Shown: positions 21,824 through 59,160, numbered from the stretch's first letter. The stretch: 64,000 nucleotides of DNA from a bacterium (GCA_030428785.1 JAUIEF010000007.1:1333-65332); one strand, 5' to 3'. Numbers and translations: made by a program. The notes: a model not told the origin generated them from the letters alone.

Positions 21824-22093
<270 letters not shown>

Positions 22094-22201
22094 TCCTCTC
22101 GCTTCGCGAGAGTTCGGCGGCCGCTCACTTCGTGAGCGCCCCACAAGACTCCGGGGACACGACGTCGGTGGTCACCCGGCTGCGTGCTCGACGCACTGGG
22201 C

Positions 22202-22273
22202 GGGACTCCTTTCCTGGAATCGGGCGGGGCCCCCACTGGGCGTCACCCCACCCGATTCCAGGAAAGGAGTCCC
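22202..22273 (+). promoter_or_regulatory. perfect 23-bp hairpin sequestering the RBS of the four-helix-bundle gene
   Basis: GGGACTCCTTTCCTGGAATCGGG (22202-22224) is the exact reverse complement of CCCGATTCCAGGAAAGGAGTCCC (22251-22273). After one mismatch, 4 more bp pair (22226-22229 with 22246-22249), leaving a 16-nt loop. The 3' arm contains AGGAAAGGAG and ends 4 nt before ATG 22278. Confidence 0.7.
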
Positions 22274-22277
22274 TCAC

Positions 22278-22598
22278 ATGTTCGACGTCCTCGAGATCGC
22301 GATCCGCATGGTGGCCTCGCTTCGCTCGCCGTTGGCGACGCTCCAGGTGTGTGATCGCGACATGCACCGCCAGGTTCGGAGAGCTGCTGCCTCGGTGACC
22401 CTCAACATCTCCGAGGGTCAGCGTCGCGGCGGGAAGGATCGCCGGCATCACTGGCGCGTTGCGGCAGGTTCGGCGGACGAGGTGCGGACCGCGTTGCGTA
22501 CCGCGGTGGCGCTGGGTGACCTGCGCGAGGAGGACCTCGCCGAATCCTTCGAGCTCCTCGACCGCGTGCTCGCCATGCTCTGGAAGCTCACGCACTGA
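22278..22598 (+). CDS. four-helix-bundle protein (23S rRNA intervening-sequence protein / Avd-like family)
   Basis: Carries [42 protein letters not shown]. This matches the family hallmark xLRRAAxSIxxNIAEGxGR....F..IA.GSxxE. 106 aa, predicted all-helical. Confidence 0.8.
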
Positions 22599-22607
22599 CG
22601 AAGCGCC

Positions 22608-22636
22608 CCGCCCCGGCGGTCGAACCGCCGGGGCGG
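22608..22636 (+). terminator. GC-rich stem-loop after the four-helix-bundle gene (candidate intrinsic terminator)
   Basis: CCGCCCCGGCGG (22608-22619), loop TCGAA, CCGCCGGGGCGG (22625-22636). The stem is a perfect 12 bp and begins 10 nt after the stop. It is followed by TTCCGGTTTCGGTTTCGG, the T-richest stretch locally and the start of array 2. Confidence 0.45.
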
Positions 22637-22744
22637 TTCCGGTTTCGGTTTCGGTTCCGGTTTCCGATCCGGCTTCGGGTTCCGATTCGGCTTCGGTTTC
22701 GGCTTCGGCTTCGGCTTCGGCTTCGGCTTCGGCTTCGGCTTCGG
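22637..22744 (-). repeat. hexanucleotide array 2: 18 units NTTCGG/NTTCCG, inverted relative to array 1
   Basis: Counted directly. The 5' units are degenerate. The last 7 units are perfect CTTCGG (22703-22744). 22698-22744 is the exact reverse complement of 21828-21874. Confidence 0.95.
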
Positions 22745-22905
22745 AGCCGAGCGCGCCAGATCCCGTCATGGGACACCCGAATTCCGAGCACCCGTCCCGG
22801 CGCGGATCACTCCCGCCCCGCCCGCCGTAACCGCCACGGCACCCCGCCTGTTCACGCGGACCCGGTAGAATCCCCGCTCCCATCGCCGCCCGAAGGAGGA
22901 GAGCC

Positions 22906-46182: not shown

Positions 46183-46881
46183 ATGACGACGCGCGTCGCG
46201 CACTACCCGTTCACGTCGCGGCAGGCGTGCGTGCTCGTGCCCGCCGAGGAGCGGGCGTCGGGCGCGCGGCCGCCGCTGCTCGTCGTCGTGCACGGCTACG
46301 CGCAGACGGGCGACCGTCAGCACCGCTGGATGGGACGCGCCGTGCCGCCGGCCTTCGCGGCGGCGTTCCCCGACGGCTTCCACCCGTTCGAGGTGCGCAA
46401 GCAGGGTCGCCCGCCGCGCATCGGCTACGCGTGGTACGTCTTCAGCGGCGACCGACCGGCGTTCCTCGCGAGCCTCGCGCGCGCGAGCGAGGCGCTGTGG
46501 GAGCTCGTCGACCGCCTCGCCGACGACCTCGACGCCGACGCGTCGCGCGTCTTCCTCGCGGGCTTCTCGCAGGGCGCCTACCTGGTCAACCACGCGGCGA
46601 TGACGCGCCCCGACCGTTGCGCCGGCTGGATCGCGCAGTGCGGCAACTTCCGCGAGGACTACCTGCAGGGCGCCGTGCCGGACCTCGCCGGCACGCCCGT
46701 GCTGCTCCAGTACGGAGAGCACGACACGGCGCTGCCCGAGGGCGCCGCGGAGTCCTGCCGCGAGCTCATCACGGGCTTCGGCGCGGACGTCACGACCTCC
46801 GTCCACGACGCCCCCCACGCGATCACGCCCGGCATGGCGGACGAAGCGCGGGACTGGCTCGCCGCGCACGCGGGCGGGTAG
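46183..46881 (+). CDS. alpha/beta hydrolase (phospholipase/carboxylesterase-type esterase)
   Basis: Carries LLVVVHGY and the nucleophile elbow GFSQGA. The C-terminal end has a D...H arrangement (HDTALP, DAPHAI). Confidence 0.7.
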   Translation: MTTRVAHYPFTSRQACVLVPAEERASGARPPLLVVVHGYAQTGDRQHRWMGRAVPPAFAAAFPDGFHPFEVRKQGRPPRIGYAWYVFSGDRPAFLASLARASEALWELVDRLADDLDADASRVFLAGFSQGAYLVNHAAMTRPDRCAGWIAQCGNFREDYLQGAVPDLAGTPVLLQYGEHDTALPEGAAESCRELITGFGADVTTSVHDAPHAITPGMADEARDWLAAHAGG

Positions 46882-47091
46882 CGCACGGCGCGTGACGCGC
46901 GGCGCCCGACCCGGAGCTCACTCGCGCGTTCGCTCGTCTCCCCGCCCGACGTCCGACGTTCCCGCACGCGCGACCCACCGTCTCGCGCGGCGCCCGACGC
47001 CTTGCCTCCCCGCACGCCGAGCGCGCCTCCCCGCCTCACGCGGCGCCCGACGCCCAGGCTCCGCCCGCTCGTTCGCGCGACACGTCCCCAG

Positions 47092-47361
47092 CGAGCGCGG
47101 GGGTGTGGGACGCCGTCCCCACCGAGTCCCCGTGCACGAGCCGCGTCCGACGTGCCGGGTGCGAGGGGAGGGTCCCCCCGAACGCATGGAGACGAGCCGA
47201 AGAGCAGCCGCGACCGGGCCGCAGGCCCGGAGCGGCGGAGGCAGCGAGCACGCGTCCCCGAGCGGCCGCGGGCGGGGGGACCCTCCCCTCGCACCCGGCC
47301 GCCACCGACGCCTCGCCCCCACCCACTCGCCGCGAGCGGCGCCCCACGATCCCGTCGCGAG
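47092..47361 (-). repeat. structured 3'-end element, type 1, copy 1a (270 nt)
   Basis: Aligns with 47969-48258 in the flanks and loop. The stem arms are 47155-47179 and 47274-47298, 25 bp and all Watson-Crick. The loop is 94 nt. The right end abuts the yjbQ stop codon (47362-47364). Strand is the inferred sense, co-oriented with the upstream gene. Confidence 0.85.
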
Positions 47362-47781
47362 TCACTCCCCCGTCAGGTGCAGCACGATCGACCGCCGATG
47401 AGCCCGCGTCCGGTGCTCGGCGACGAAGAGCCCCTGCCACGTGCCGAGGGCGAGCGCGCCGTCGACGACGGGGATCGTCTCGCTCGTGCTCGTGACGGCC
47501 GCGCGGAGGTGCGCGGGCATGTCGTCGGGGCCTTCGGCGGTGTGCGTGTGCGCGGGGTCGCCGTCGGGCGCGAGCCGGCCGAGCCAGGCGACGAGGTCGC
47601 GGGTTGCGGAGGGGTCGGCGTTCTCCTGGATGAGCAGGCTCGCCGAGGTGTGCCGGCAGAACACGGTGAGCAGCCCGGTGCGGATCCCCGAGCCGCGTAC
47701 GAAGTCCGCGACCTCGCGGGTGATCTCATGGAGCCCGCGCCCGGGCGTCCGCACCTCGAGGATGGTCTGGGCGTGGGTCAC
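47362..47781 (-). CDS. yjbQ: YjbQ/UPF0047 family protein (secondary thiamine-phosphate synthase family)
   Basis: GTG start. 139 aa. Carries HEITREV, LLTVFCRHTSASLLIQENADPS, DDMPAHLRAA and LGTWQGLF, the family hallmarks. Confidence 0.85.
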   Translation of the reverse strand: MTHAQTILEVRTPGRGLHEITREVADFVRGSGIRTGLLTVFCRHTSASLLIQENADPSATRDLVAWLGRLAPDGDPAHTHTAEGPDDMPAHLRAAVTSTSETIPVVDGALALGTWQGLFVAEHRTRAHRRSIVLHLTGE

Positions 47782-47968
47782 GGTTCAGGCAGCGGGTGAG
47801 GGTCGGCGGACGAGCGGTGAGAGCGTAACCGCGCGCCGCCTGGTCCGAGTGACCGATCCGCCGCGCGAGCCTCCCGCGCGAGCACGAGCTCCCCCGCGAC
47901 TCCATGACCGTCCCACGCGGCACCCGCCGTCGCCACCCCCGAGCCCCCCTCGCGCGCCCTCCCCCGGT

Positions 47969-48258
47969 GAGCGCCGGGGTGTGGGCCGCCTCACCCACCG
48001 GGTCCCCGTGCACGGTGCTCGTCCGACGTGCCGCGGGCGCGGAGAGGCTCGACCCTCCCTCCCCGGGAGACTTGAGTCGAGCCGAGTGGCAGCCGCGATC
48101 GGGCCGAAGGCCCGGAGCGGCGGAGGCAGCTGACCGAGGTTCCCGAGCGGCCCTGTCGGACGGGGAGGGAGGGTCGAGCCTCTCCGCGCCCGCGGCCGCC
48201 ACCGACTCCCCCCCCGCGCCCCCGCGCGGCGCTCAGCGTCCCACGATCCGGACGCGAG
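47969..48258 (-). repeat. structured 3'-end element, type 1, copy 1b (290 nt)
   Basis: The stem arms are 48031-48064 and 48162-48195, 34 bp and all Watson-Crick. Their sequence is unrelated to the arms of copy 1a. The loop is 97 nt and its core is conserved with copy 1a. The right end lies 3 nt from the tRNA-Gln 3' end. Confidence 0.85.
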
Positions 48259-48261
48259 CGA

Positions 48262-48335
48262 TGGTTCCCGAACTAGGACTCGAACCTAGATTACCTGATC
48301 CAGAGTCAGGCGTCCTGCCATTGGACGATTCGGGA
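48262..48335 (-). tRNA. tRNA-Gln (anticodon CUG), CCA encoded
   Basis: The reverse complement reads TCCCGAA T C GTCC AATGGCA GGAC G CCTGA CTCTGGA TCAGG TAAT CTAGG TTCGAGT CCTAG TTCGGGA A CCA. Full cloverleaf with a U1-A72 pair, as in many tRNA-Gln. Confidence 0.88.
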
Positions 48336-48486
48336 AACCGGGTCGAGATCGGCATGATTATGGGGCTCGCGGGGCGCGGGTCAACGCCCGGCGGGGTCCC
48401 TCCCGCTCCCGCCCCGCCGACCGCTCGCCGCACGTCGTCACGCACCACGTCCCGTACCTCTTACCGAACCGGGATCCGGGGACCCC

Positions 48487-49380
48487 ATGTCCGACACCGC
48501 GTCCACCTTCCTCGGCCTGCCGGACGCCGGCGAGGCCGCCGACATCTGTCTCGTCTGCGCGCCGTACGACCTCACGAGCACGTACGGCAAGGGCGCCGAC
48601 CGCGGTCCCGAGGCGTTGCTCGCGGCGTCGGGGAGCGTGGAGACCTGGGAGGAGGAGACGGGCTTCGACCTCGAGACGATGCGCTACACGGTGCGTCGGC
48701 CGGAGGACGCGGCGGCGTTCGGGCGGCTCCCGCCGGAGGAGATGGTCGCGGTGCTGCGTCGGCTGCACGACGAGGTGCTCGACGCGGGGATGATCGGGCT
48801 CGGGCTGGGCGGCGAGCACTCGATCACGTACGGGCAGTTCGCGGCCTTGCAGGCGCGGCACCCGCGGCTCGCGGTGCTGCAGATCGACGCGCACCTCGAC
48901 CTGCGGGACAGCTACGACGGCAGCAAGCACAACCACGCGTGCATCGCGGCGCGGTTCCTCGAGGACGGCGCGCCGCTCGTGCAGGTCGGCATGCGCAGCT
49001 GCAGCCGCGAGGAGGCGGCGTTCGTGGAGGCGCGCGGGTTGACGCCGTTCTGGGCGCGGCACGTCGCGGGCAAGGTCGCGTACCACCGCGAGGTGCTCGA
49101 CCGGCTCGCGGGCCGGCCGGTGTTCGTGACGGTGGACCTCGACGGCTTCGATCCGTCGGTCGTGCCGTCGACGGGGACGCCGGAGCCGGGCGGGCTCGAC
49201 TGGTACGACGTCGCGCGGCTGCTCGCGACGGTCGGGCGGCACTGCGAGGTCGTGGGCGCGGACATCACGGAGCTCGCGCCGACGGAGGGCGCGCACAACC
49301 GGCCGAGCGAGTTCCTCGCGGCGCGGCTCGCGTCGAAGATGGTCGCGTGGTTCTGGGCGCCGGGGCGGCCGCGGACCTGA
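48487..49380 (+). CDS. speB: agmatinase / arginase-family ureohydrolase
   Basis: Mn-binding motifs GGEHSITY, DAHLDLRD, VTVDLDGFDPS and ADITELAP. The symbol is tentative, because substrate cannot be read from the sequence. Confidence 0.75.
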   Translation: MSDTASTFLGLPDAGEAADICLVCAPYDLTSTYGKGADRGPEALLAASGSVETWEEETGFDLETMRYTVRRPEDAAAFGRLPPEEMVAVLRRLHDEVLDAGMIGLGLGGEHSITYGQFAALQARHPRLAVLQIDAHLDLRDSYDGSKHNHACIAARFLEDGAPLVQVGMRSCSREEAAFVEARGLTPFWARHVAGKVAYHREVLDRLAGRPVFVTVDLDGFDPSVVPSTGTPEPGGLDWYDVARLLATVGRHCEVVGADITELAPTEGAHNRPSEFLAARLASKMVAWFWAPGRPRT

Positions 49381-49382
49381 CG

Positions 49383-49434
49383 CGCGCGGGAGGCGCGGCG
49401 ACATGCCGCCGCGCGCGAGCGACGCCTCCGCGCG
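49383..49434. terminator. GC-rich nested hairpin between convergent genes (possible bidirectional terminator)
   Basis: The outer stem is about 12 bp with one bulge (49383-49395 paired with 49423-49434). It encloses a 5-bp inner hairpin (49395-49399 with 49405-49409). No U-tract. Confidence 0.3.
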
Positions 49435-49455
49435 GTCGGCGCGGGGCGCGTGCGG

Positions 49456-49965
49456 TCAGGGCCGGTCGGACTCGAGCTCGCGGTACGGCGAGCGCGACGC
49501 GAGCCAGCAGAGGACGAAGCCCGCGAGGCAGAGCCAGGTGAGGACGGCCGGCGTGCCGCCCGAGATGAGGGCGGCGAGCGGCCGGCCGTCGGACACCTCG
49601 CCGCCGGACCAGCGCACGGCGAGCGCGGCCCACTGCACGGTGCCGAGCAGGAACCCGCGTCGGACGACGACGAGCACGCGGCCCGTGTCGTGCGAGAGCC
49701 CCCAGCTCGCGACGGCCCACACGAGGAGGAAGCAGCCGGCCGCGGACCACTCGCGGAGGACGTCGCCGACGCCGAAGCCCAGCGCGAGCACGGCGAGCAC
49801 CGCCGCGACCGCGCCGAGGAACACGCCCGCGAGGAGCGCCTCGGGAGACGCCGGCGCCGTGCTGACCTGCGAGACGTGCGGGTCGTCCGCGACGCTCGTC
49901 GGCGGCGCCGTCGGGACGAGGCGACCGCCCGCCGCCCGTTCGTGGATGCGTGCCTGACCGCTCAT
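49456..49965 (-). CDS. membrane protein, function unknown (169 aa)
   Basis: Complete track ORF. GGGAGGG lies upstream of the ATG. Four hydrophobic segments (e.g. LLAGVFLGAVAAVLAVLALGFGV, PAVLTWLCLAGFVLCWL). Confidence 0.5.
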   Translation of the reverse strand: MSGQARIHERAAGGRLVPTAPPTSVADDPHVSQVSTAPASPEALLAGVFLGAVAAVLAVLALGFGVGDVLREWSAAGCFLLVWAVASWGLSHDTGRVLVVVRRGFLLGTVQWAALAVRWSGGEVSDGRPLAALISGGTPAVLTWLCLAGFVLCWLASRSPYRELESDRP

Positions 49966-50290
49966 GCCCGTTGCCCTCCCTGACCGGTCGTGGACGACAC
50001 CACGACCCTGTTTCGTTCACCGCCGAACGATGACAGCCGACCATCGGGACCCGACCGCCGGCCCGGGAGGTGCGTCTGGACGACCGGCTTGCAGGGATCT
50101 CGTCTCCCGAGACACTGCCTGTCGGACAGGCCCGGTGCAAGCACGGATCGCGCGTTCCCGGACGCGTCCACGGAAACGCATGACCGGGAGCGGATGGAAA
50201 CGGTGCTGCGGGTGCAGGTGGAGCGTGTCCGGCGCGGGGACGTGGGGGCGAGCCGGTGTCCTCGGAGCGCGGGCGGTCGCCGCAGGCCCG

Positions 50291-51124
50291 TCAGGTCGAG
50301 GCCGCGTCCGCCGCGGCGACCTCGCCGCCGCTCTCCTTGGAGCGCAGGGCGAGCGTCGCGAGGACCAGGGCGCCGGCGCCGATGCCGGCGATCGTCGCGA
50401 TCGAGGCGCTCAACGGCAGCGGCTCCACGGCGAGCAGGTTGGTCGTCGGCAGGCGGAACATGTCCATGCCCGTGACCTGGAAGAGGATGTTGCGCGCCTG
50501 GAAGCTCATCGAGAAGGCCGCGAAGCTCTGCGGCAGGTTCGCGGTGAGCATCTCGAACAGGAAGACGTAGACGAAGGACGTCATGACCGCGCGGCGCAGG
50601 AACACGCCGAAGAGCTGGAACACCGCCGCGTACGCGAGGACGAGGAAGCACACGACGAGCACGACCGAGGCGAGCTCGGGGAGATAGTGCGTGAGCGCGT
50701 CCTCGAAGCCGAGCAGCGAGGTCACGTAGAAGACGAGCAGCGGCGGCAGCACGAAGAGCAGGCCGCGACGCGCCGCCGCGAACCAGCGCCCGACGACGAG
50801 CGCGGCGCGCGAGACGGGCAGGCCGACGACGTAGTGCGCCGTGCCGCTCGCCCACTCGTCGCCGAAGGCCGCCGTGCCGAGGAAGATCATCGTGAGCGGC
50901 ACGATGAACGCGAGGTAGATGCCGGTGACGCCCTGCGCGAAGCCGGCGAAGCCCGCGCCGCGCGACGAGTCGGAGAGCGTGAGCCGCAGGATCTGCACGA
51001 GGACGGGCAGCCACGCGAGGAGCACCATGCCGACGAGGCGTCGCCCGCGCGGGGCGCCGGAGGCGGTGGTGCGCGCGGCGGCGAGCGCGGCGGCGAGACC
51101 GCGGGGCGGGGTCGGGCGGGTCAT
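50291..51124 (-). CDS. ABC-2-type transporter permease
   Basis: 277 aa with about 6 TM segments. The start overlaps the upstream ATPase stop by 4 nt. Confidence 0.65.
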   Translation of the reverse strand: MTRPTPPRGLAAALAAARTTASGAPRGRRLVGMVLLAWLPVLVQILRLTLSDSSRGAGFAGFAQGVTGIYLAFIVPLTMIFLGTAAFGDEWASGTAHYVVGLPVSRAALVVGRWFAAARRGLLFVLPPLLVFYVTSLLGFEDALTHYLPELASVVLVVCFLVLAYAAVFQLFGVFLRRAVMTSFVYVFLFEMLTANLPQSFAAFSMSFQARNILFQVTGMDMFRLPTTNLLAVEPLPLSASIATIAGIGAGALVLATLALRSKESGGEVAAADAAST

Positions 51125-52068
51125 GACGCCTCCCGGGACTGCGTGAGGTAGGCGAAGACGGAGCGCAGGTCCTCGTCGAGCGGCTCGATGGTGCGCACCC
51201 GGAGCTCGCCCGCGGCGGCGGCGCGCCCGAGGAAACGGGTGAGCCGGTCGGGGTGCATCGTCTCGACGACGACGGCCTCCGGCTCGAGGGTCAGGCCGAC
51301 GAGCAGGCCCTCCTCCGGCTCCTCGAGCAGACGGCGCGCGAAGGCGCGCGGGTCGGCGGCGGCGAGCCGGATGCGGCGCGCGTGCGTGTCGAGCGTGTCG
51401 CGGATCTCCGTGACCGTGCCCTCGGCGAGCACCTGTCCGTGCCGCATGAGCACGATGGAGTCGGTCATCGCCTCGATCTCGTGCAGCACGTGGCTGCTCA
51501 CGACGACGGTCTTGCCCTCGTCGCCGAGCTCGCGGATGACGCGGATGTAGTCGCGCCGCATGACCGGGTCGAGGCCGGTGAGCGGCTCGTCGAGCACGAG
51601 GACGTCCGGCTCGTGGAGCATGGCCTGCGCGAGCTTGAGGCGCTGGCGCATGCCCTTGCTGAAGCCGCCCGAGCGGCGTTCGATCGCGTCCGGCAGGCCG
51701 ACGCGCTCGAGGACCTCGACGGCGCGCTTCGACGCCGCGGCGGCGTCGAAGCCGCGCATGACCGCCTGGTCCTCGAGGAAGCGCTTGGCGGTGACGTCGT
51801 CGTAGAGCGCGTCCGCGTCGGCGACGTAGCCGATGCGCGCGAGCGACGGCAGGTGGTTGCGCACGGGCTCGCCGTCGAGCAGCACGCGCCCGCTGCCCGG
51901 CGACGCGAGGCCGACGATGAGCCGGATGAGCGTCGTCTTGCCGGCGCCGTTCGGGCCGAGCAGGCCCGTGACGCCGGGCCCGAGCTCGAGGTCCACCGCG
52001 TTGAGCGCGATGACGTCGCCGAACCAGCGGCTCACCTTCTCGAGCTTCACGAGGCCGCGCGCCGTCAC
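51121..52068 (-). CDS. ABC transporter ATP-binding protein
   Basis: Same frame as track ORF 51121..52926. GTG 52068 overlaps the upstream stop. Walker A GPNGAGKTT, signature FSKGMRQRL, Walker B VLVLDEP. Confidence 0.85.
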   Translation of the reverse strand: MTARGLVKLEKVSRWFGDVIALNAVDLELGPGVTGLLGPNGAGKTTLIRLIVGLASPGSGRVLLDGEPVRNHLPSLARIGYVADADALYDDVTAKRFLEDQAVMRGFDAAAASKRAVEVLERVGLPDAIERRSGGFSKGMRQRLKLAQAMLHEPDVLVLDEPLTGLDPVMRRDYIRVIRELGDEGKTVVVSSHVLHEIEAMTDSIVLMRHGQVLAEGTVTEIRDTLDTHARRIRLAAADPRAFARRLLEEPEEGLLVGLTLEPEAVVVETMHPDRLTRFLGRAAAAGELRVRTIEPLDEDLRSVFAYLTQSREAS

Positions 52069-52991
52069 GCCACGATCTCCACCGGGCGCACGCGGCGCAG
52101 CACGACGGCGAGGCACAGGAGCGTCCAGCCGCCGAGGATGCCGGCCGACCACGCGACGGGCATGTCCGGGTAGCGCGCGAGCTCGACCTGGTTGTCGAGG
52201 ATCCACGCCATGCAGCGCGAGAGGTTGAAGTGCAGCGAGACGAGGTGCACCTCCGGATTCAGGAACGCCTCCTGGAGGTTGCCGCGCAGCAGGCCCTCGA
52301 CCATGACGAGGAAGCCGACCCACAGGATCGACGCGTTGCGCGCGCGCTTGCTGAGCGCGGACGCCGCCGTCACGAGCACCGAGAGGAACGCGACGAACAC
52401 CGTGCCGGCCACGATCGAACGCCAGAAGAGCCCGGCCAGCTCGGCCGTCTGCCCCGGCTCGAAGCCCACGAGGAACGCCTGCACGAGGATGAGCAGGCAC
52501 ACGGGCAGCACGGTGATGAGCGTCAGGAAGAACCCGATGATGCCGAGCTTGCCGAGCACGTACTGCCACACGGAGAGCGGCCGGCTCAGGTACATCTCGA
52601 GCGCGTTCGTGCGGCGGTCCTCCGCGACGAGTCCCGCCCCCACGACGACGCACAGGATGAGGCACACCCAGATCTGCAGCTCGAGGAAGTAGCCCCACAC
52701 GTTGTCCGCGGTGGGCGACACGAGCTGGAGGATGCCGGACTGCTCGATGCCCTGCGCGATCTCCGGGTAGGTCGCGACGTTCGCGCGGAAGTAGAACGCG
52801 AGGTACAGCGCGCCGAGCGCGAAGAGGAACGGGCCGAACGCCCAGAAGCTCAGCAGCTGCCCGAAGATCTTGCGCTTGAAGATCGCCGCGAGCCCCGTCG
52901 AGACGCCGCGGTCCATGATGACCCACACGCCGCGTACCGGCTTGTCGCGGTCGCCGTCCCAGCGCGCGTAGCTCCTGTCGTGGACGACCAT
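52065..52991 (-). CDS. ABC-2-type transporter permease
   Basis: Same frame as track ORF 52065..53618, trimmed to ATG 52991 (ATGA overlap with the upstream ATPase stop). About 6 TM segments. Confidence 0.65.
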   Translation of the reverse strand: MVVHDRSYARWDGDRDKPVRGVWVIMDRGVSTGLAAIFKRKIFGQLLSFWAFGPFLFALGALYLAFYFRANVATYPEIAQGIEQSGILQLVSPTADNVWGYFLELQIWVCLILCVVVGAGLVAEDRRTNALEMYLSRPLSVWQYVLGKLGIIGFFLTLITVLPVCLLILVQAFLVGFEPGQTAELAGLFWRSIVAGTVFVAFLSVLVTAASALSKRARNASILWVGFLVMVEGLLRGNLQEAFLNPEVHLVSLHFNLSRCMAWILDNQVELARYPDMPVAWSAGILGGWTLLCLAVVLRRVRPVEIVA

Positions 52992-53917
52992 CAGCGACCG
53001 CCCAGCACGTCGATGAGCGCGTCCTCGAGGCTCACGCGCACGGGCGTGAGCCGGCGCACGATGACCTCGCTCTCCTCCGCCGCGCGGAAGAGCGGCTGCG
53101 TGTCGGCCGCGAGCGAGACGCCCAGCTGGAGGTGCTGGTCGCGCGTCTGCATCACGGGGATCCCGTGGCGCTCGCACGCCGCGCGGAAGGCCTCGACCGG
53201 CCCGGCGACGGTGACCTGGCACGCGTCCTCGGTCGCGGCCTGCAGCTCGGCGACCGTCGCGGAGCGCACGACCGTCCCCTGCCGCATGACGACGACGGAC
53301 GTGCAGACCTCCTCGACGTCGCGCAGCAGGTGGCTCGAGAGCACGACGTGGATGCCCTTGTCGCGGGACAGCGTCCGCACGAGCCCGAGCATCTCGGCGC
53401 GGCCCTGCGGGTCGAGGCCGTTCGTCGGCTCGTCGAGGAAGAGCAGGTCCGGGTCGTGCACGAGCGCCTGCGCGAGCTTGATGCGCTGCCGCATGCCCGT
53501 GCTGTACGTCGAGACCATGCGGTACCGCGCCTCCTCCATGCCGGCGAAGAGCAGCACCTCGTGCGCGCGACGGCGGGCGTCCGCGTCGGGCATGCCGGAG
53601 AGACGCCCCGCGTACCACGTCGCCTGGAAGCCCGTCATGTCCGGGAAGGCCGCGTCGCGCTCCGGCATGTAGCCGACGCGTCGGCGCAACGTCGACGCGC
53701 GCCGTGACACCTTGCGCCCGAGCAGCGTCGCGCGTCCCTTGTGGAGCGGCACGAGCCCGAGCAGCATCTTGATGAGCGACGACTTGCCCGCGCCGTTCGG
53801 GCCGAGCAGACCCACCGCGCCGCCCCCCACCGTCGTCGTGACGTCGTGGAGCGCGACGTGCTTGCCGTAGCGGACCTCGACGTCCGTGAGCTCGAGGATG
53901 GGCGCGGAGTCCGTCAC
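52991..53917 (-). CDS. ABC transporter ATP-binding protein
   Basis: Track ORF 52991..53992 trimmed to GTG 53917, which overlaps the upstream stop. Walker A GPNGAGKSS, signature YSTGMRQRI, Walker B LLFLDEP. Confidence 0.85.
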   Translation of the reverse strand: MTDSAPILELTDVEVRYGKHVALHDVTTTVGGGAVGLLGPNGAGKSSLIKMLLGLVPLHKGRATLLGRKVSRRASTLRRRVGYMPERDAAFPDMTGFQATWYAGRLSGMPDADARRRAHEVLLFAGMEEARYRMVSTYSTGMRQRIKLAQALVHDPDLLFLDEPTNGLDPQGRAEMLGLVRTLSRDKGIHVVLSSHLLRDVEEVCTSVVVMRQGTVVRSATVAELQAATEDACQVTVAGPVEAFRAACERHGIPVMQTRDQHLQLGVSLAADTQPLFRAAEESEVIVRRLTPVRVSLEDALIDVLGGR

Positions 53918-54198
53918 GCGGCGGCCCCCGAGGCGTCGCCCGCGAACGGACCGCCCGGCCGGCGGAGCAGCGCGACGACGCTCGACAGGCACCAGAAGCC
54001 CTCGAGCCCGACGAACACCGGCTCGTCGATGCGGCCCGAGTACGCGGCGAGCAGCCCGGCGCCGAGCGCGTTCGCCGTGAGGTATCGCACCGAGTCCGGC
54101 CGGCAGCGCCCCGTCTGGTTCACGAGGTACGCCCCCACCAGGAACAGGAACCCGACCACGGAGAGGGTCTTCCAGACCATCCCGGGCTCGTCGGGCAT
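53914..54198 (-). CDS. small membrane protein (94 aa), first gene of the ABC cluster
   Basis: Track ORF 53914..54510 trimmed to ATG 54198. Three hydrophobic segments (VVGFLFLVGAYLV, LGAGLLAAYSG, GFWCLSSVVALL). Confidence 0.45.
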   Translation of the reverse strand: MPDEPGMVWKTLSVVGFLFLVGAYLVNQTGRCRPDSVRYLTANALGAGLLAAYSGRIDEPVFVGLEGFWCLSSVVALLRRPGGPFAGDASGAAA

Positions 54199-54427
54199 GC
54201 CGTTCCTCTCCTCGGACCTCGCTGGTCGCACGCGAGGGGGCAGTCTACCGACGCGCCCTCTCCCGATGAATGGCCGGCCCGTGTCCGCATGGCGCGGTTG
54301 TTGGGCGAGCGACCGTCGGCGTTGCAGCGCGACCCCGCGGCCACCTCGTCCCGCGGCGTGCGCCCTCCGGTCCGCCCCGCCCCGCCGTTGGCCCGGCGCC
54401 CCCCGATCCGGCATCATCCACCGGATC

Positions 54428-55855
54428 ATGAGCTTCCACCTGTACGACTCGATGCGCCGCGAGAAGGTCCCCTTCGAGCCCCTCATCCCGGGCAAGGTGG
54501 CCATGTACAACTGCGGCCCGACGGTCTACAGCGCCGCGCACATCGGCAACTTCCGATCGTTCCTCTTCGCCGACGTCCTGCGCCGCTGGCTCGAGGTCTC
54601 CGGCTACGAGGTCACCCAGGTGATGAACATCACCGACGTGGGCCACCTCCGCGACGACGACCCCGAGCAGGGCGCCGACAAGATGGAGGAGGCCGCGAAG
54701 AAGGAGCAGCTCGACCCCTGGAAGATCGCCGAGAAGTACACGGCGCTCTTCTTCGAGGACCTCGACACGCTGCGCATCCAGCGCGCCCACCAGTACCCCC
54801 GCGCCACGGACCACATCCCGCAGATGATCGAGCAGATCCAGCAGCTGCTCGACTCCGGCCACGCCTACGAGGCCAGTGGCGCCGTCTACTACGACGTCTC
54901 GAGCTTCCCCGCCTACGGCCGCCTCTCCGGCAACACCGGCGACGACCTCATCGCCGGCGCGCGCGTCGCCGTCGCCGAGGAGAAGAAGGACCCGCGCGAC
55001 TTCGCCCTCTGGAAGAGCGACCCCCACCACCTCATGCAGTGGGACTCGCCCTTCGGCCGCGGCTTCCCCGGCTGGCACATCGAGTGCTCCGCCATGAGCC
55101 AGTCCATCCTCGGCGAGACGCTCGACCTCCACACCGGCGGCGAGGACAACGTCTTCCCCCACCACGAGTGCGAGATCGCGCAGGCCGAGGGCGCCACCGG
55201 CAAGCCCTTCGTCCGCCACTGGATGCACGCGCGCCACCTCATGCTCGACGGCGGCAAGATGAGCAAGTCGCTGGGCAACCTCTACACCATCGGCCAGCTC
55301 GCCGAGATGGGGCACGACCCCGTCGCCGTCCGCTTCGCCCTGCTCCGCGTCCAGTACCGCCAGGTGCTCAACTTCACGCTGCCCGGCCTCGAGGAGGCCG
55401 CGACCGCCGTGCGCCGCCTGCGCCTCTTCGCCACCGACATGGAGGAGGCCGCCGCCGGCGCCGAGCCCGGCGACCCGCCCGCGTGGCTCACCGCCGCCGT
55501 GCAGCGCTTCGACGAGTCCATGGACGACGACCTCAACACCTCCGGCGCGCTCGACGGCGTCTTCACGCTCATGAACGAGGCGAACCGCCGCAAGGTGACC
55601 GGCCCCGACGCCGCCGCGGCCCTCGCCGCCCTGCGCCGGATGGACCGCGTGCTCGACGTCGTCCGCGAGGACGCCCCCGAGGACCTCGACGCCGAGGTCG
55701 AGGACCTCGTCCGCCGCCGCACCGAAGCACGCGCGGCGAAGGACTGGGCCACCGCCGACGAGATCCGCGACCGCCTCGCCGAGCTGGGAATCGAACTCCT
55801 CGACGGCAAGGACGGCAAGGTGCGGTGGCGACGCACGGGCGCGGGCGCGAGCTGA
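54428..55855 (+). CDS. cysS: cysteine--tRNA ligase
   Basis: Same frame as track ORF 53741..55855, trimmed to ATG 54428. Carries MYNCGPTVYSAAHIGN (HIGH motif), GWHIECS and KMSKSLGN (KMSKS motif). Confidence 0.92.
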   Translation: MSFHLYDSMRREKVPFEPLIPGKVAMYNCGPTVYSAAHIGNFRSFLFADVLRRWLEVSGYEVTQVMNITDVGHLRDDDPEQGADKMEEAAKKEQLDPWKIAEKYTALFFEDLDTLRIQRAHQYPRATDHIPQMIEQIQQLLDSGHAYEASGAVYYDVSSFPAYGRLSGNTGDDLIAGARVAVAEEKKDPRDFALWKSDPHHLMQWDSPFGRGFPGWHIECSAMSQSILGETLDLHTGGEDNVFPHHECEIAQAEGATGKPFVRHWMHARHLMLDGGKMSKSLGNLYTIGQLAEMGHDPVAVRFALLRVQYRQVLNFTLPGLEEAATAVRRLRLFATDMEEAAAGAEPGDPPAWLTAAVQRFDESMDDDLNTSGALDGVFTLMNEANRRKVTGPDAAAALAALRRMDRVLDVVREDAPEDLDAEVEDLVRRRTEARAAKDWATADEIRDRLAELGIELLDGKDGKVRWRRTGAGAS

Positions 55856-55898
55856 GGGGCCGACTTTCCCGGTCGGTGGACTGCGTGCGCGGGACGGT

Positions 55899-56114
55899 GG
55901 GAGCGTTCCGCTCGGGCGGGCGCGGCGGGCCGGACGCGCTGGCCGAGAGTCGGTGGCGCCGACCGTGAGGAGACACATGGGCCCCGTGCTCAGACAAGTC
56001 CTCGGGCCTTCGGCCCTGCGGGAGATAACTGCGCGCGGGGCCCATGTGTCTCCTCACGTCGCATCCGGAACGGTTTCCACGGCGCGTCCGGCCCGTCGCG
56101 ACCTTCCTCGCTGC
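55899..56114 (+). repeat. structured 3'-end element, type 2, copy 2A (216 nt)
   Basis: Reverse-complement homolog of 56499-56729. The stem arms are 55965-55985 and 56037-56057, 21 bp and all Watson-Crick. The loop is 51 nt and contains GGGCCTTCGGCCC. It begins 43 nt after the cysS stop. Confidence 0.85.
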
Positions 56115-56498
56115 ACTCACACCGCGACCCGCGGGGATGGGTCCGCGCGGAGAGGGACGCCGGCGGACGACACCCGCGGGGAGACGACGTCGCGTGTGGC
56201 CGTGCATCGCGCGTTCCGCGCTCGCACTCGTCGGCGGAAATCAGGCAGGACGCCGAGTGCCGGGAGCCCATCGGCGTCGCGAACAGCAGGCGTCATGCCG
56301 GCGGTCAGCCGTCACGTCGGGAGCGAAGCGATCCGACTTCACGTGGTCCGTGACGAGCCGAGCGGTTCTCTCGCGCGTTCCCCGCGCGGCGTCGGCTTCC
56401 GTGCCCCGACCCGCTCCATGCCGCCGGCCCGCCCGCACGGATCGGTGCGGTCCGTGCGCCGACCCATCGACGCCTCCCACTCGCGTCACGATGGGAGC

Positions 56499-56729
56499 GC
56501 AGCGAGGGAGGACGCGTCGGGACGGACGCGCCGTGGAAGTCGTTCCGGATGCGACGTGAGGGCATGTCTGCGGCCCACGCGCAGTTATCTCCCGCAGGGC
56601 CGAAGGCCCGAGGACCTCTTCGATCATAGGCCCCTTCTTGAGCATGGGCCGCAGACATGCCCTCACGGTCGGCGCCACCGACCCCACCCCAGCGCGTCCG
56701 TCCCGCCGCGACCGACCGAGCGGAGCGCC
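56499..56729 (-). repeat. structured 3'-end element, type 2, copy 2B (231 nt)
   Basis: The stem arms are 56556-56577 and 56645-56666, 22 bp and all Watson-Crick. Beyond the first GTGAGG, the arm sequence differs from copy 2A. The loop is 67 nt and shares GCGCAGTTATCTCCCGCAGGGCCGAAGGCCCGAGGAC with the reverse complement of 2A. It ends 7 nt from the stop of gene 56737..59160. Confidence 0.85.
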
Positions 56730-56736
56730 CTGGACG

Positions 56737-59160
56737 TCACCCGTCGCCGAGGTAGCCGAGCGCCTTGAGCTCCGCGAGCGCCGCCCCGGCCGCGTCGCTC
56801 CCCACCGCGTGGCCGCCCTCCGGCGCCGTGTACCGTCCGAGGAACCACGCGAGGCGGCGTCGCAGCTCGGCGACGTCGTCGGGGCGGACCGCCGCGACGT
56901 CCTCGTGCTCGCCGGGGTCGTCGGTGAGGTCGTAGAGCGAGGCGGGTGACGCGGCGTCGTCCGTGCGCGGGCCGATGAGCTTGGTCCCGTCGCTGAGCAC
57001 GGCGCGGCGGTCGTCCGATTCCGCGACGCGCACGTCGGGGCGCGCCGTGTCGACGGCGGCACCGCGCGGCTCGCGGCCGCCGCTCCGCGCGTCGCCGCCT
57101 TCGGTCGGCGTCGTGCCGCGGTGTGCTCGCAGCGAGCGGCCCGGCAGGTCATCGGGGACCGGCAGGCCGACGACGTCGAGCACCGTCGGCACGAGGTCGA
57201 GGCCCGAGACGGGGACGTCGCTCGCGCCGGGGCGGGCGTCCGGGTAGCGCACGACGAGCGGCACGCGGAGCTGCTCGGCGTGGAGCGAGGCGCCGTGGCC
57301 CAGGTGGCCGTGCTCGAGGAAGCCCTCCCCGTGGTCGCTCGTGAAGAGCACGAGCAGCGGCTCGTCGCCGACGCGCGCCTCGAGCTCGCGCAGGAAGGCG
57401 GCGACGTGCGCGTCCATGCCGGTCACGAGGCCGTCGTAGAGCGCCTCGACCCAGGCGGCGTCGGCGGGGTCGAGCGACAGCTCGCCGCGGTTGCACGGGT
57501 CGAGGACGTTGTGCGTGTCGACCTCGAGGTCGCGCAGCGGACCGGCGTAGGCCGGGTCGGTCCAACGGTCCGTGCGCTCGTAGGGCGCGTGGACGGCGTA
57601 GGTGTGCAGGAAGAGGAAGACCGGCCGCTCGCTGTCGCGCGCGGCGACGAAGTCGAGCGCGGCGCTCCAGTCGAGATCCTTGGGGTCGCGCGTGTCGTAG
57701 CGCTCGAAGCCCGCGTCGCAGCCGTAGACCGGGCGCAGGTAGCCGCCGCCCGTCAGCGCGCGGGTCTCGTAGCCGGCGTCGGCGAGGCGCGACGCGAGGG
57801 TCGTCGCCGTGTCGCCGAGCGCGGCGCTCGCGCGGTCGACGCCGTGCTGGTGCACCGCGAGGCCCGTGAGGAAGGAGACCGTCGACGGCAGCGTCCAGGG
57901 CGCGGTCGACACGGAGTCCGTGTAGACGACGGCGCGCTCGGCGGCCCACGCGTCGAGCGCGGGCGTCGTCGCGCGCGCCGCACCGTAGGCCGCGAGGCGG
58001 TCGGCGCGCAGGGTGTCGACGTCGACGAGCACGACGTGCGGTCGGTCGGGCACGCGCGCCGCGCCTCCGCGGAGGCGCAGGTCGGCCCAGAGGCCGTAGT
58101 CGTGGAGCGCGTCGCCGGCGGGCCCCGGCTCCGTGACGAGCCGCAGCGCCACGCGGCGTCCGCGGAAGCGCGCGAGGTCGACGACGGCCTCGGTCCACGC
58201 CTCGCCGACGTCGTCCGCGCCGACGGTCGCGCTCCACACGCGCTCGACGGTCGCCGTCGCGGAGCCTGAGTCCGGCGCACCGCCGGCCCCGTCGACCGCG
58301 CCGCCTCCCGCCCGTCCCTCGACGACGACCTCCACCGCGAAGGTCGCGCCGTCGCCGCGGCGGGGCGCGCGGCGCACGACGCCGTCCTCGATCGTCCAGC
58401 CCTCGGGCGAGACGCCGACCGCGACGTGCAGCCGGTCGGCGCGCAGGACGCCCGCCGGCAGCTCGAGCACGGACGGCGCGGCGAGCAGCACCGCGTCGCG
58501 CGTCACGTCGTCGAGCGTCGCCCGCGTGCGCAGGTCCGCCGGCGCCGGCTCGTGCCCCGTGAGCGCGCGCCCGCGCTCGACCCGCGCGAACTCCGCGACG
58601 GCCGGCACGCTGCCCACGAGGCTCACGCCCCGCGGCGGCCCCTCCGACACGGCGAGCACCATGTGCTGCCCGCGGTACCAACCCGCGAAGCGCTCGGGCA
58701 CGGGCGCCGCGTCGCCGAAAGACCAGCGCGGAACGTCGCGGCCGTCGACGCGCGCGACGGGCTCCGGCGCGCCCTCCACGAGCGGCAGCGGCGGTCGCGC
58801 CCACCAGAGGTCGCCGCGGCCGTGCGCCTCGAGCGTCGCGACCCACTCCGGCGGCATGGCCTCGGCGCGCTGCCACGCGAGCGGCGGCATGGGGACCTCG
58901 ACGCGCACGGGACCGCCGAGCGTCTCCGCGACGTCCGGCGGCAGCGCGTGCGCGGGCGCCGCGAGGAGTCGCGCGCCGTCGAGGCGCTCGAGCAGCCCGT
59001 CACCCGGTCGCCACTCGCCGTCGGTGCGCGCGACGGGTACCGCGCGCTCCCCGCCCGGCGCGGCGATCGTGCCCGGCACGTCCCCGCCGCACGCGACGAC
59101 GGCAAACGCGACGACGCACGCGACGAGTCCCCGTCGCGCGCGCCGCGCCCCGCCCGTCAC
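56737..59160 (-). CDS. sulfatase-like hydrolase/transferase lipoprotein (alkaline phosphatase superfamily) with a large N-terminal domain
   Basis: GTG 59160 overlaps the rbfA stop. Lipobox AFAVVACGG. The C-terminal half carries VVLVDVDTLRADRL, LVLFTSDHGEGFLEHGHLGHG. No clear CxPxR motif. Confidence 0.75.
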   Translation of the reverse strand: MTGGARRARRGLVACVVAFAVVACGGDVPGTIAAPGGERAVPVARTDGEWRPGDGLLERLDGARLLAAPAHALPPDVAETLGGPVRVEVPMPPLAWQRAEAMPPEWVATLEAHGRGDLWWARPPLPLVEGAPEPVARVDGRDVPRWSFGDAAPVPERFAGWYRGQHMVLAVSEGPPRGVSLVGSVPAVAEFARVERGRALTGHEPAPADLRTRATLDDVTRDAVLLAAPSVLELPAGVLRADRLHVAVGVSPEGWTIEDGVVRRAPRRGDGATFAVEVVVEGRAGGGAVDGAGGAPDSGSATATVERVWSATVGADDVGEAWTEAVVDLARFRGRRVALRLVTEPGPAGDALHDYGLWADLRLRGGAARVPDRPHVVLVDVDTLRADRLAAYGAARATTPALDAWAAERAVVYTDSVSTAPWTLPSTVSFLTGLAVHQHGVDRASAALGDTATTLASRLADAGYETRALTGGGYLRPVYGCDAGFERYDTRDPKDLDWSAALDFVAARDSERPVFLFLHTYAVHAPYERTDRWTDPAYAGPLRDLEVDTHNVLDPCNRGELSLDPADAAWVEALYDGLVTGMDAHVAAFLRELEARVGDEPLLVLFTSDHGEGFLEHGHLGHGASLHAEQLRVPLVVRYPDARPGASDVPVSGLDLVPTVLDVVGLPVPDDLPGRSLRAHRGTTPTEGGDARSGGREPRGAAVDTARPDVRVAESDDRRAVLSDGTKLIGPRTDDAASPASLYDLTDDPGEHEDVAAVRPDDVAELRRRLAWFLGRYTAPEGGHAVGSDAAGAALAELKALGYLGDG

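Follow-up and report, generated by a model that had tools for sequence, protein, structure and literature searches.

How do the two arms of a long hairpin remain perfectly complementary when their sequence differs from one copy to the next? This question is raised by four hairpins (c1 to c4), all lying within 9.5 kb of a 64-kb stretch of DNA (GCA_030428785.1 JAUIEF010000007.1:1333-65332, hereafter the window) from one Planctomycetota metagenome-assembled genome (MAG) with a G+C content of about 74%. We tentatively read them, with a little less than an even chance of being right, as intergenic repeats, non-coding, palindromic and rod-forming, that belong to two distantly related families with two copies each and that would be specific to a Planctomycetota lineage, would be co-transcribed as rods at the 3' ends of genes and would have their helix kept by template switching. 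The key observation is a contrast within one and the same unit: the outer helices contain many G-U pairs and mismatches, while the inner helix contains none, despite a divergence of 22-39% between copies.

Four perfect hairpins

Inverted-repeat searches and an exact-stem scan of the window recovered all four hairpins at the positions given by a first-pass annotation of this DNA. The perfect inner helix comprises 27 bp in c1 (47154-47180/47273-47299, around a 92-nt apical domain at 47181-47272), 36 bp in c2 (48030-48065/48161-48196; 95 nt, 48066-48160), 23 bp in c3 (55964-55986/56036-56058; 49 nt, 55987-56035) and 23 bp in c4 (56555-56577/56645-56667; 67 nt, 56578-56644). The lengths reported earlier (arms of 25, 34, 21 and 22 bp, loops of 94, 97, 51 and 67 nt) were thus nearly right, falling short of the maximal arms by only one or two base pairs each. 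The accompanying claim that the stems have no mismatch or G-U pair applies to their full extent, as all 109 of the 109 bp are of Watson-Crick type. When perfect hairpins of at least 16 bp with a loop of at most 130 nt were counted, the window yielded five, as compared with a mean of 0.13 (range 0-1) in 30 dinucleotide shuffles; the fifth, at 22202-22273, is unrelated to c1-c4. No comparable hairpin was found in 52 kb of syntenic DNA from the three relatives that served for comparison, namely L005 (a 5.29-Mb genome contig), L006 (GCA_029245865.1) and L007.

As the source is a MAG, perfect inverted repeats might be considered artefacts of assembly or amplification, such as chimeric snap-back molecules, and the fact that a Logan contig stops inside the c2 stem could be taken in this sense. 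However, c1 is base-for-base identical in this independent Logan assembly, which renders an assembly artefact unlikely, and conserved asymmetric loops and flanks, together with mirrored differences between copies, are not expected of artefacts. We thus regard this explanation as having almost negligible probability. The Logan contig is short and ends inside the 36-bp stem of c2, with its positions 1-120 corresponding to about 47980-48100 of the window. As inverted repeats of this sort fragment short-read assemblies, elements that carry them will be under-represented in contig databases.

Arm divergence and compensated changes

By loop type, c1 and c2 are assigned to type A, and c3 and c4 to type B. 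Same-type arms had been described as essentially unrelated, a result of aligning c1 and c2 out of register. In register, 21 of the 27 positions of the type A arms are identical (78%), one 9-nt indel aside, with the flanks being 75-77% and the loop 80% identical. Type A stems therefore diverge at the background rate, such that their perfection is not explained by recent insertion. In type B, 14 of 23 arm positions match (61%), as compared with 80-82% in the flanks and 94% in the loop; here the basal CGTGAGG and apical GGCCC are kept and the differing part is a central block of 8-10 bp. This is a modest excess that falls short of hypervariability, a description that is weakly supported for type B and unsupported for type A. 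Likewise, one should not speak of a full compensatory replacement of 20-30 bp, as the arms are homologous and type A arms diverge no faster than does the rest of the unit. A block inversion ("flip") was considered as the origin of the type B stem difference and rejected as not significant (shuffle P ~0.1).

Two further points of the first-pass annotation, namely that the helix itself is maintained and that a copying mechanism may regenerate it, are nonetheless strengthened by the alignment in register. All same-type differences inside the perfect stems are compensated, with no uncompensated change being seen: The type A inner helix presents six double substitutions, and its 9-bp indel occurs in mirror image on the two arms, while the type B inner helix presents nine double substitutions. 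In the outer stems, by contrast, about one third of the positions are not Watson-Crick. RNAalifold counted 9 compensated pairs for type A and 11 for type B overall, a few of these being in outer helices. Slow compensation at the RNA level alone is disfavoured, as passage through G-U intermediates would leave some G-U pairs, which are totally absent from the inner helix, and as a mirrored 9-bp indel is hard to produce in this manner. The mirrored indel and the missing intermediates thus favour copying.

The hairpins as cores of larger rods

The hairpins are not free-standing elements. Rather, each is the core of a rod-like imperfect palindrome of 255-355 nt. On the minus strand, the c1 unit (47064-47361) starts directly past the yjbQ stop codon (47362-47364) and the c2 unit (47905-48258) starts 3 nt past the 3' end of tRNA-Gln. 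The c3 unit (55886-56140, plus strand; outer stem 55888-55939/56082-56133) starts ~31 nt past the cysS stop codon (55853-55855), and the c4 unit (56483-56738, minus strand; outer stem 56493-56536/56687-56730) abuts the stop codon of a sulfatase gene (56737-56739). Homology between c1 and c2 spans about 47031/47908 to 47361/48258, and that between c3 and c4 spans ~250 nt. All units fold in the same order: An imperfect outer helix that includes G-U pairs leads into the perfect inner helix (23-36 bp), which is capped by the conserved apical domain. Roughly two-thirds of the outer helix positions are paired, and the outer arms are 73-75% complementary.

To describe the outer palindrome, the left outer arm was aligned, unit by unit, to the reverse complement of the right outer arm. 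This yielded 245 Watson-Crick positions, 26 G-T/A-C positions and 93 other mismatches. When read on the gene-sense strand, 24 of the 26 transition-type mismatches are G-U pairs, with only 2 being so on the other strand. The G+U-rich strand of each unit is the sense strand of its upstream gene, and this strand (G>C, U>A) forms more pairs, including 8-12 G-U pairs as compared with 3-6 on the opposite strand. In each of the four copies, this strand has the lower minimum free energy, the difference being 11-24 kcal/mol; the z-scores of folding lie between -4.5 and -8.6. These facts point to the folding of one specific strand, most simply that of a read-through RNA from the upstream gene. The earlier suggestion was that the lack of G-U pairs fits a DNA-level hairpin or cruciform, or a long double-stranded RNA (dsRNA). 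The inner helix is indeed free of G-U, but the pattern in the outer helices points to a fold of RNA, or of a single strand, in gene-sense orientation and away from a cruciform of purely double-stranded DNA.

Insertion into compact intergenic spacers

Each unit begins 0-38 nt past the end of its upstream gene, the distance being 0 nt for yjbQ (PF01894; 47362-47781, minus strand, upstream of c1 in the sense direction), 3 nt for tRNA-Gln(CTG) (48262-48335, minus, upstream of c2), ~31 nt for cysS (54440-55855, plus, upstream of c3) and 0-3 nt for the sulfatase gene (56737-59160, minus, upstream of c4). An arginase-family gene is also among the neighbours. The type A copies are direct repeats that flank yjbQ, 880 bp apart, while the type B copies form a convergent, inverted pair, 590 bp apart.

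The host CysS is 80-82% identical to the CysS of its closest database relatives. L005 and L006 present the same gene order around all three sites, while L007 keeps cysS but has a different gene next to it, after a short spacer. The cysS-sulfatase spacer measures 881 nt in the window (c3, a 342-nt spacer and c4), as compared with 26 nt or an overlap in relatives. The abhydrolase-yjbQ spacer, which holds c1 and its tail, measures 480 nt, as compared with 46 nt in a relative, and the tRNA-Gln-yjbQ spacer, which holds c2 and about 120 nt more, is also 480 nt long, as compared with about 36 nt. L005 and L006 thus offer empty sites with short spacers where the window has inserts of 480-881 nt, and L007 has its short spacer after cysS. 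Given how much shorter these spacers are, we consider the units as lineage-specific insertions into very compact intergenic DNA.

No open reading frame (ORF) in the inserts shows the periodicity in third-position G+C (GC3) typical of this genome's genes. On its far side, each unit is followed by about 120-180 nt of non-conserved DNA. The 342 nt between the convergent type B units (56141-56482) are non-coding, lack coding-type GC3 and are not found in the relatives. Distal to c1, a non-coding tail (46891-47062, minus strand) between the abhydrolase stop codon and c1 contains three copies of GTCGGGCGCCGCG in repeats of roughly 53-88 nt, and this exact 13-mer occurs nowhere else in the window. 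The c1-c2 homology enters this tail, with 47031-47052 matching 47908-47929; apart from this short stretch, no significant homology was found among the 5' or tail extensions of the copies. A sigma-70-like promoter, TTGACC-16-CATAAT (48384-48357, minus strand), lies upstream of tRNA-Gln and reads into c2, and both hexamers can also be read upstream of tRNA-Gln in L005 and L006. Such a near-consensus promoter of the sigma-70 type is notable in a Planctomycetota genome of 74% G+C.

Motifs shared by the two types

The first-pass annotation read all copies in a common orientation, which is the reverse complement of the upstream gene's sense strand (for c3, this orientation is the minus strand). In this orientation, sequence reading and a pattern search agree with it that all four copies have GACGTG at the 5' foot and a conserved motif 3' of the stem. 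In type A, GACGTG extends 1 nt into the perfect stem and GCCACCGAC follows the stem at a distance of 1 nt, the corresponding values for type B being 4 nt and 6 nt; GGGCCGNAGGCCCG in the loop is likewise common to all four. A pattern joining (S)CGCCACCGAC and GGGCCGNAGGCCCG matches exactly c1-c4 in the window and nothing in shuffles. On the sense strand, the foot motifs read GUCGGUGGCG ... CACGUCG. The division into two types with conserved loops is equally clear, as loop identity within a type reaches 80% (A) and 94% (B), with 38 consecutive identical nucleotides in the type B apical domain. The apical domain, conserved and asymmetric, carries a GGGCC-NNN-GGCCC hairpin.

The notion of one architecture in all four copies is accurate for three short common motifs and the general layout only, as types A and B show no detectable overall homology. 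Indeed, nhmmer with the four units found none, and a type B covariance model that gives c3 and c4 scores of 154-177 bits did not reach c1 or c2 even at E<=10. Nonetheless, a 10-mer, a 6-mer and a 13-of-14-mer recur at corresponding positions in both types, and from base composition we estimate the joint chance of this to be well below 1e-6. As this is far beyond chance, A and B would have either a remote common ancestor or a constraint that acts on the foot and apex of the helix in both.

The 8-mer GTCGGTGG, with which the helix foot opens in each of the four units when read on the sense strand, matches 11 times in the window, as compared with 6.2 expected; it was rejected as a window-wide motif, as the surplus comes from the elements themselves. 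Directly past the cysS stop codon lies a small hairpin, CCGAC-TTTCCCG-GTCGG (55857-55882), and the TGG after it makes another GTCGGTGG. Given the 11 matches against 6.2 expected, this extra occurrence could be due to chance.

Searches for further copies, families and enzymes

The view that the hairpins belong to no described family was upheld, with no match to Rfam, REP definitions, attC core sites or a retron reverse transcriptase (RT). At the gathering threshold, Rfam 15 matched two tRNAs and nothing else in the whole window; permissive E-value scans of both regions gave only sub-threshold matches to generic miRNA hairpins (31 bits, as compared with a gathering score of 100). For wider searches, we used the three-motif pattern GGGCCGNAGGCCCGRRG..SCGCCACCGAC (SC being left out in the viral scan), which recovers all four copies in the window. 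No family member was found in 185,579 GTDB species genomes, where the single match, in Thermoplasmata, was rejected as chance, having no long hairpin and being apparently coding. Nor was any found in 241 M JGI metagenome records, where two matches fell in one low-GC contig and were rejected, as they represent the 3' end of a tRNA-Cys gene and duplicate copies beside GC-rich hairpins. The coincidence with cysS beside type B was judged to be chance, as the 11-mer is forced by the pattern and as the discriminator/CCA context differs between c3 and c4.

That low-GC JGI contig (L003) has its tRNA-Cys(GCA) gene at 749-820 and matches the pattern via the common 11-mer CCGCCACCGAC only. Copies of the tRNA-Cys 3' end (AATCCGCCACCGACCTCAAC) lie at 119-134(-), 282-297(-) and 803-822(+) in L003 and at 159-174(+) in L004, the extra ones alternating with GC-rich hairpins and terminators. 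The layout resembles att-site duplications from integration at tRNA-Cys.

The pattern had no match in IMG/VR, and a distant-mode similarity search of PLSDB plasmids with two units gave none. Six-frame translations of the four units, which were meant to catch spurious ORFs lying over other copies, had no match at E<=10 among 5.8 billion proteins. Neither nhmmer, run with the four units, nor the type B covariance model revealed further copies in the window or at the relatives' loci. The stems had no significant match elsewhere in the window or in 50,697 phage genomes (the best being 20 nt, E=1, in mycobacteriophages), and were thus rejected as spacer-like sequences. Across the 64 kb, no transposase, integrase or RT domain was found among the scanned ORFs and no Argonaute or Cas gene was seen; the remaining genes are housekeeping genes, identified by synteny. 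No consistent direct repeat that would represent a target-site duplication was found at the c1-c4 boundaries, which are not fixed to the base as the relatives' spacers cannot be aligned. In both regions, scans found no terminator-like site, the 3' sides of the stems being G/C-rich and without a U-tract, and no promoter-like site specific to the units.

Comparison with known elements

Functionally and anatomically, the closest known elements are the intergenic hairpin repeats resembling miniature inverted-repeat transposable elements (MITEs), namely Correia and ERIC, and REP/REPIN. Like Correia/CREE of Neisseria and ERIC/IRU of enterobacteria, the units are non-coding intergenic insertions, with those elements being 100-300 bp long and having empty sites in relatives. 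Correia and ERIC are co-transcribed with neighbouring genes and form long RNA hairpins, which for our units is predicted. Correia elements bind RNase III, being either cleaved or else protected by it (PMC2649163). In the present units, however, pairing is best internally rather than at the ends, the inner helix being perfect and its indels mirrored. The known copies number just 2+2 and are adjacent, with 61-94% identity by segment, and no related insertion sequence or transposase and no target-site duplication was found. The comparison with MITEs in general is similar: The whole unit is an imperfect palindrome with outer arms that are 73-75% complementary, but its ends are not sharp. Empty sites exist (L005 and L006, and the short spacer of L007), while neither a target-site duplication in the 64 kb nor dispersed near-identical copies in public genome, metagenome, viral and plasmid collections were found.

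REPs are extragenic palindromes at gene 3' ends that often form inverted pairs between convergent genes and conserve structure while some of their sequence varies (PMC3733652, PMC3116915). The units share with them the position at gene 3' ends. REPs carry a short conserved tag beside the stem, and in the units, CGTC lies within CACGTC at the 3' foot of the sense strand in all four copies. By size, however, the units fall well outside the REP definition (PMC3733652): A REP palindrome measures 20-40 nt, as compared with 255-355 nt here, its stem 5-13 bp (here 23-36 bp) and its loop 2-20 nt (here 49-95 nt). The GTAG/CGTC tag of REPs is unpaired, whereas CACGTC is partly inside the helix, and the CGTC-REP format is otherwise absent (8-9 bp stem, A-T at the first two stem positions, 4-5 nt loop and CCA tail). 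REP/REPIN systems also include a RAYT (TnpA-REP) gene and many copies per genome, while no RAYT was found in the window.

Other systems resemble the units in part. attC sites are structured single-strand hairpins 3' of genes with conserved structure and variable sequence, and the order c2-yjbQ-c1 superficially recalls attC-cassette-attC. Yet the feet have no R/L cores (GTTRRRY/RYYYAAC) and no extrahelical bases, the units exceed 250 nt as compared with 57-141 nt, the window has no intI, and yjbQ occupies the same syntenic place in a relative without the repeats. In retron msr-msd, as here, outer inverted repeats close a structure with a long hairpin of variable sequence, but no RT lies beside any copy or in the 64 kb, and all four copies sit in housekeeping intergenic spacers. 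A canonical intrinsic terminator is a G+C-rich hairpin followed by a U-tract, which is missing here. Intervening sequences (IVS) of 23S rRNA are rod-like transcribed inserts that RNase III cuts out of the host transcript; the units lie outside rRNA and show no sequence similarity to them. Template-switch mutation matches the mirrored substitutions and the mirrored 9-bp indel, but is a mutational mechanism and not an element family. As the units lack, for every one of these defined families, one or more of the defining features tested, we file them as a new family among bacterial intergenic palindromic repeats. They are a new example of such hairpin repeats, and there is no evidence for a new kind of system.

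Proposed origin and maintenance of the units

In the reading that we tentatively favour, the units would be transcribed as 3' extensions of the upstream genes and would serve as RNA 3'-end structures, candidate roles being to block 3'-to-5' exonucleases, to offer a site for processing by an RNase III-type enzyme or to insulate genes that are tightly packed or convergent from one another. RNase III-type enzymes need a duplex of two helical turns, and the shortest stem here has 23 bp. A role as terminator is doubtful: Mycobacterial RNA polymerase needs a U-tract for intrinsic termination (PMC3993855), and as no U-tract lies past the stems, a post-transcriptional role (exonuclease block or RNase III site) is favoured. 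The inner helix would be kept perfect by replication-associated intra-strand template switching between its close arms (quasi-palindrome correction), whereby a change in one arm would be copied onto the other. This may be accompanied by selection for at least two turns of perfect duplex, which might sharpen the boundary between inner and outer helices. Template switching has been shown to generate and preserve perfectly paired stems and compensatory changes of several bases (PMC8794818), and it can also make the arms of inverted repeats more alike and longer (PMC13100816). Arm-from-arm copying would yield exactly the observed pattern, and the inner arms, being closer together (49-95 nt) than the outer arms, fit a distance-dependent process. 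New copies would arise mainly via local duplication or short-range movement, which we propose as the two copies of each type are neighbours (880 and 590 bp apart). With adjacent copies, no target-site duplications and no database matches, local spread in a narrow lineage is likelier than a genome-wide MITE burst.

Several points weigh against this reading and should be considered. With two copies per type from a single MAG, the mirrored changes could stem from few events, and what we infer of copy number, mobility and function is drawn from the same two copies per type. Transcription of the units at 3' ends is predicted from sequence, and their orientation is deduced from composition and from a G-U asymmetry that strand-biased mutation could also yield; indeed, z-scores against shuffles do not clearly discriminate between the strands. 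No U-tract follows any hairpin in scans of both regions. Template switching alone leaves unexplained the sharp edge between 100% pairing in the inner helix and about 67% in the outer helix, and does not account for the same foot motifs in two non-homologous types, which hint at protein recognition. Finally, as no target-site duplication, dispersed copy or mobilising enzyme was found in the 64-kb window and the public collections, mobility is at most putative.

In a rather unlikely alternative, a mobile or recombination system would use the units as its cis sites at the DNA level. A single-stranded DNA hairpin would be recognised at its foot (GACGTG ... GCCACCGAC) by an enzyme whose gene lies elsewhere in the genome, for instance an HUH/Y1 transposase or other recombinase (as with REP/REPIN-RAYT, IS200/IS605 ends and attC), with the stem needing structure rather than sequence. 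The 10-mer and 6-mer lie exactly at the helix foot in two otherwise non-homologous types, the units are insertions as compared with relatives, type B is an inverted pair like REP dimers, the 3'-foot CACGTC includes the CGTC tetranucleotide tag of one REP superfamily, and the strand-specific G-T asymmetry is also compatible with folding of single-stranded DNA. However, the 64 kb contain no transposase, integrase or RT, no target-site duplication was found, attC core sites are absent and the units are ~10x the size of a REP, with stems and loops far beyond REP definitions. Same-type copies are, moreover, adjacent and not dispersed, and the generic pattern found no family member in the 185,579 genomes or the 241 M metagenome records. 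Independent structured non-coding RNA genes, forming a small paralogous family, are also unlikely, and somewhat more so. Here, function would reside in the apical domain and the junction, and the long helix would be a sequence-independent spacer under RNA-level selection. The conservation of the apical domain (80% in A; 94% in B, with its 38 consecutive identical nucleotides), compensatory changes in several helices including outer ones, the concentration of G-U pairs on one strand and the z-scores of -4.5 to -8.6 all agree with such genes. Yet the absence of any G-U pair from 109 bp of inner helix and the mirrored 9-bp indel are hard to obtain by RNA-level selection alone, there is no unit-specific promoter-like site and no Rfam match, and the RNA is not conserved, the units being missing in relatives with 80-82% CysS identity.

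Two further explanations assign the constant parts a scaffolding role. It is very improbable that a dedicated protein reads the constant foot motifs (GUCGGUGGCG ... CACGUCG) and the apical domain, with the perfect 23-36 bp duplex being actively regenerated or exchanged as one arm is snap-back copied from the other, and then processed, in the form of long dsRNA, to small RNAs; such a system would be a bacterial analogue of a pri-miRNA/shRNA cassette or a self-templating foldback replicator. Even less probable are programmable long-dsRNA hairpins, in which a constant scaffold carries an exchangeable duplex that is processed to small guide RNAs or regenerated by a dedicated copying enzyme. Perfect duplexes of 23-36 bp, at least two helical turns, would suit such hairpins, as would the constant motifs around the type B stem, in which both arms have their central 8-10 bp block replaced, but the type A stems are clear homologues that diverge at the background rate, the stems have no significant matches in the window or the 50,697 phage genomes, and no Argonaute, Cas or RT gene lies in the window.

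Should the template-switching explanation be true, the units would offer a clean natural case of hairpin arms evolving in concert, with 15 double substitutions, a mirrored 9-bp indel and no G-U intermediates, a pattern predicted by the template-switch model for the origin and upkeep of RNA and DNA stems. A Planctomycetota family would also be added to the intergenic hairpin repeats that shape transcript 3' ends, and the foot motifs common to two otherwise unrelated families would provide a handle for finding a binding protein or nuclease. The notable property of the family would be that the two arms of its inner helix evolve in concert, a finding that, with four copies in a single MAG, is suggestive and not general.

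Other features of the window

Between the abhydrolase gene and tRNA-Gln, yjbQ is present in the window (46881-48358) and in L006 (3346-4041) but absent from L005 (3824-4036), thus representing a gene-sized indel beside a tRNA gene. Elsewhere in the window, a gene for a 23S rRNA IVS protein of 106 aa (PF05635, E=5.8e-15) lies at 22278-22598(+). Hexanucleotide microsatellite arrays in inverted orientation enclose it, namely (CCGAAG/CCGAAC)n over ~265 nt (21826-22090) and (CTTCGG/TTTCGG)n over ~105 nt (22640-22745). A 33-bp, 91% complementary hairpin (22197-22278) precedes the gene, its 3' arm ending at the ATG, and a GC-rich hairpin follows it at about 22604-22632. The region as a whole (21826-22745) looks like a mobile or IVS-like cassette.

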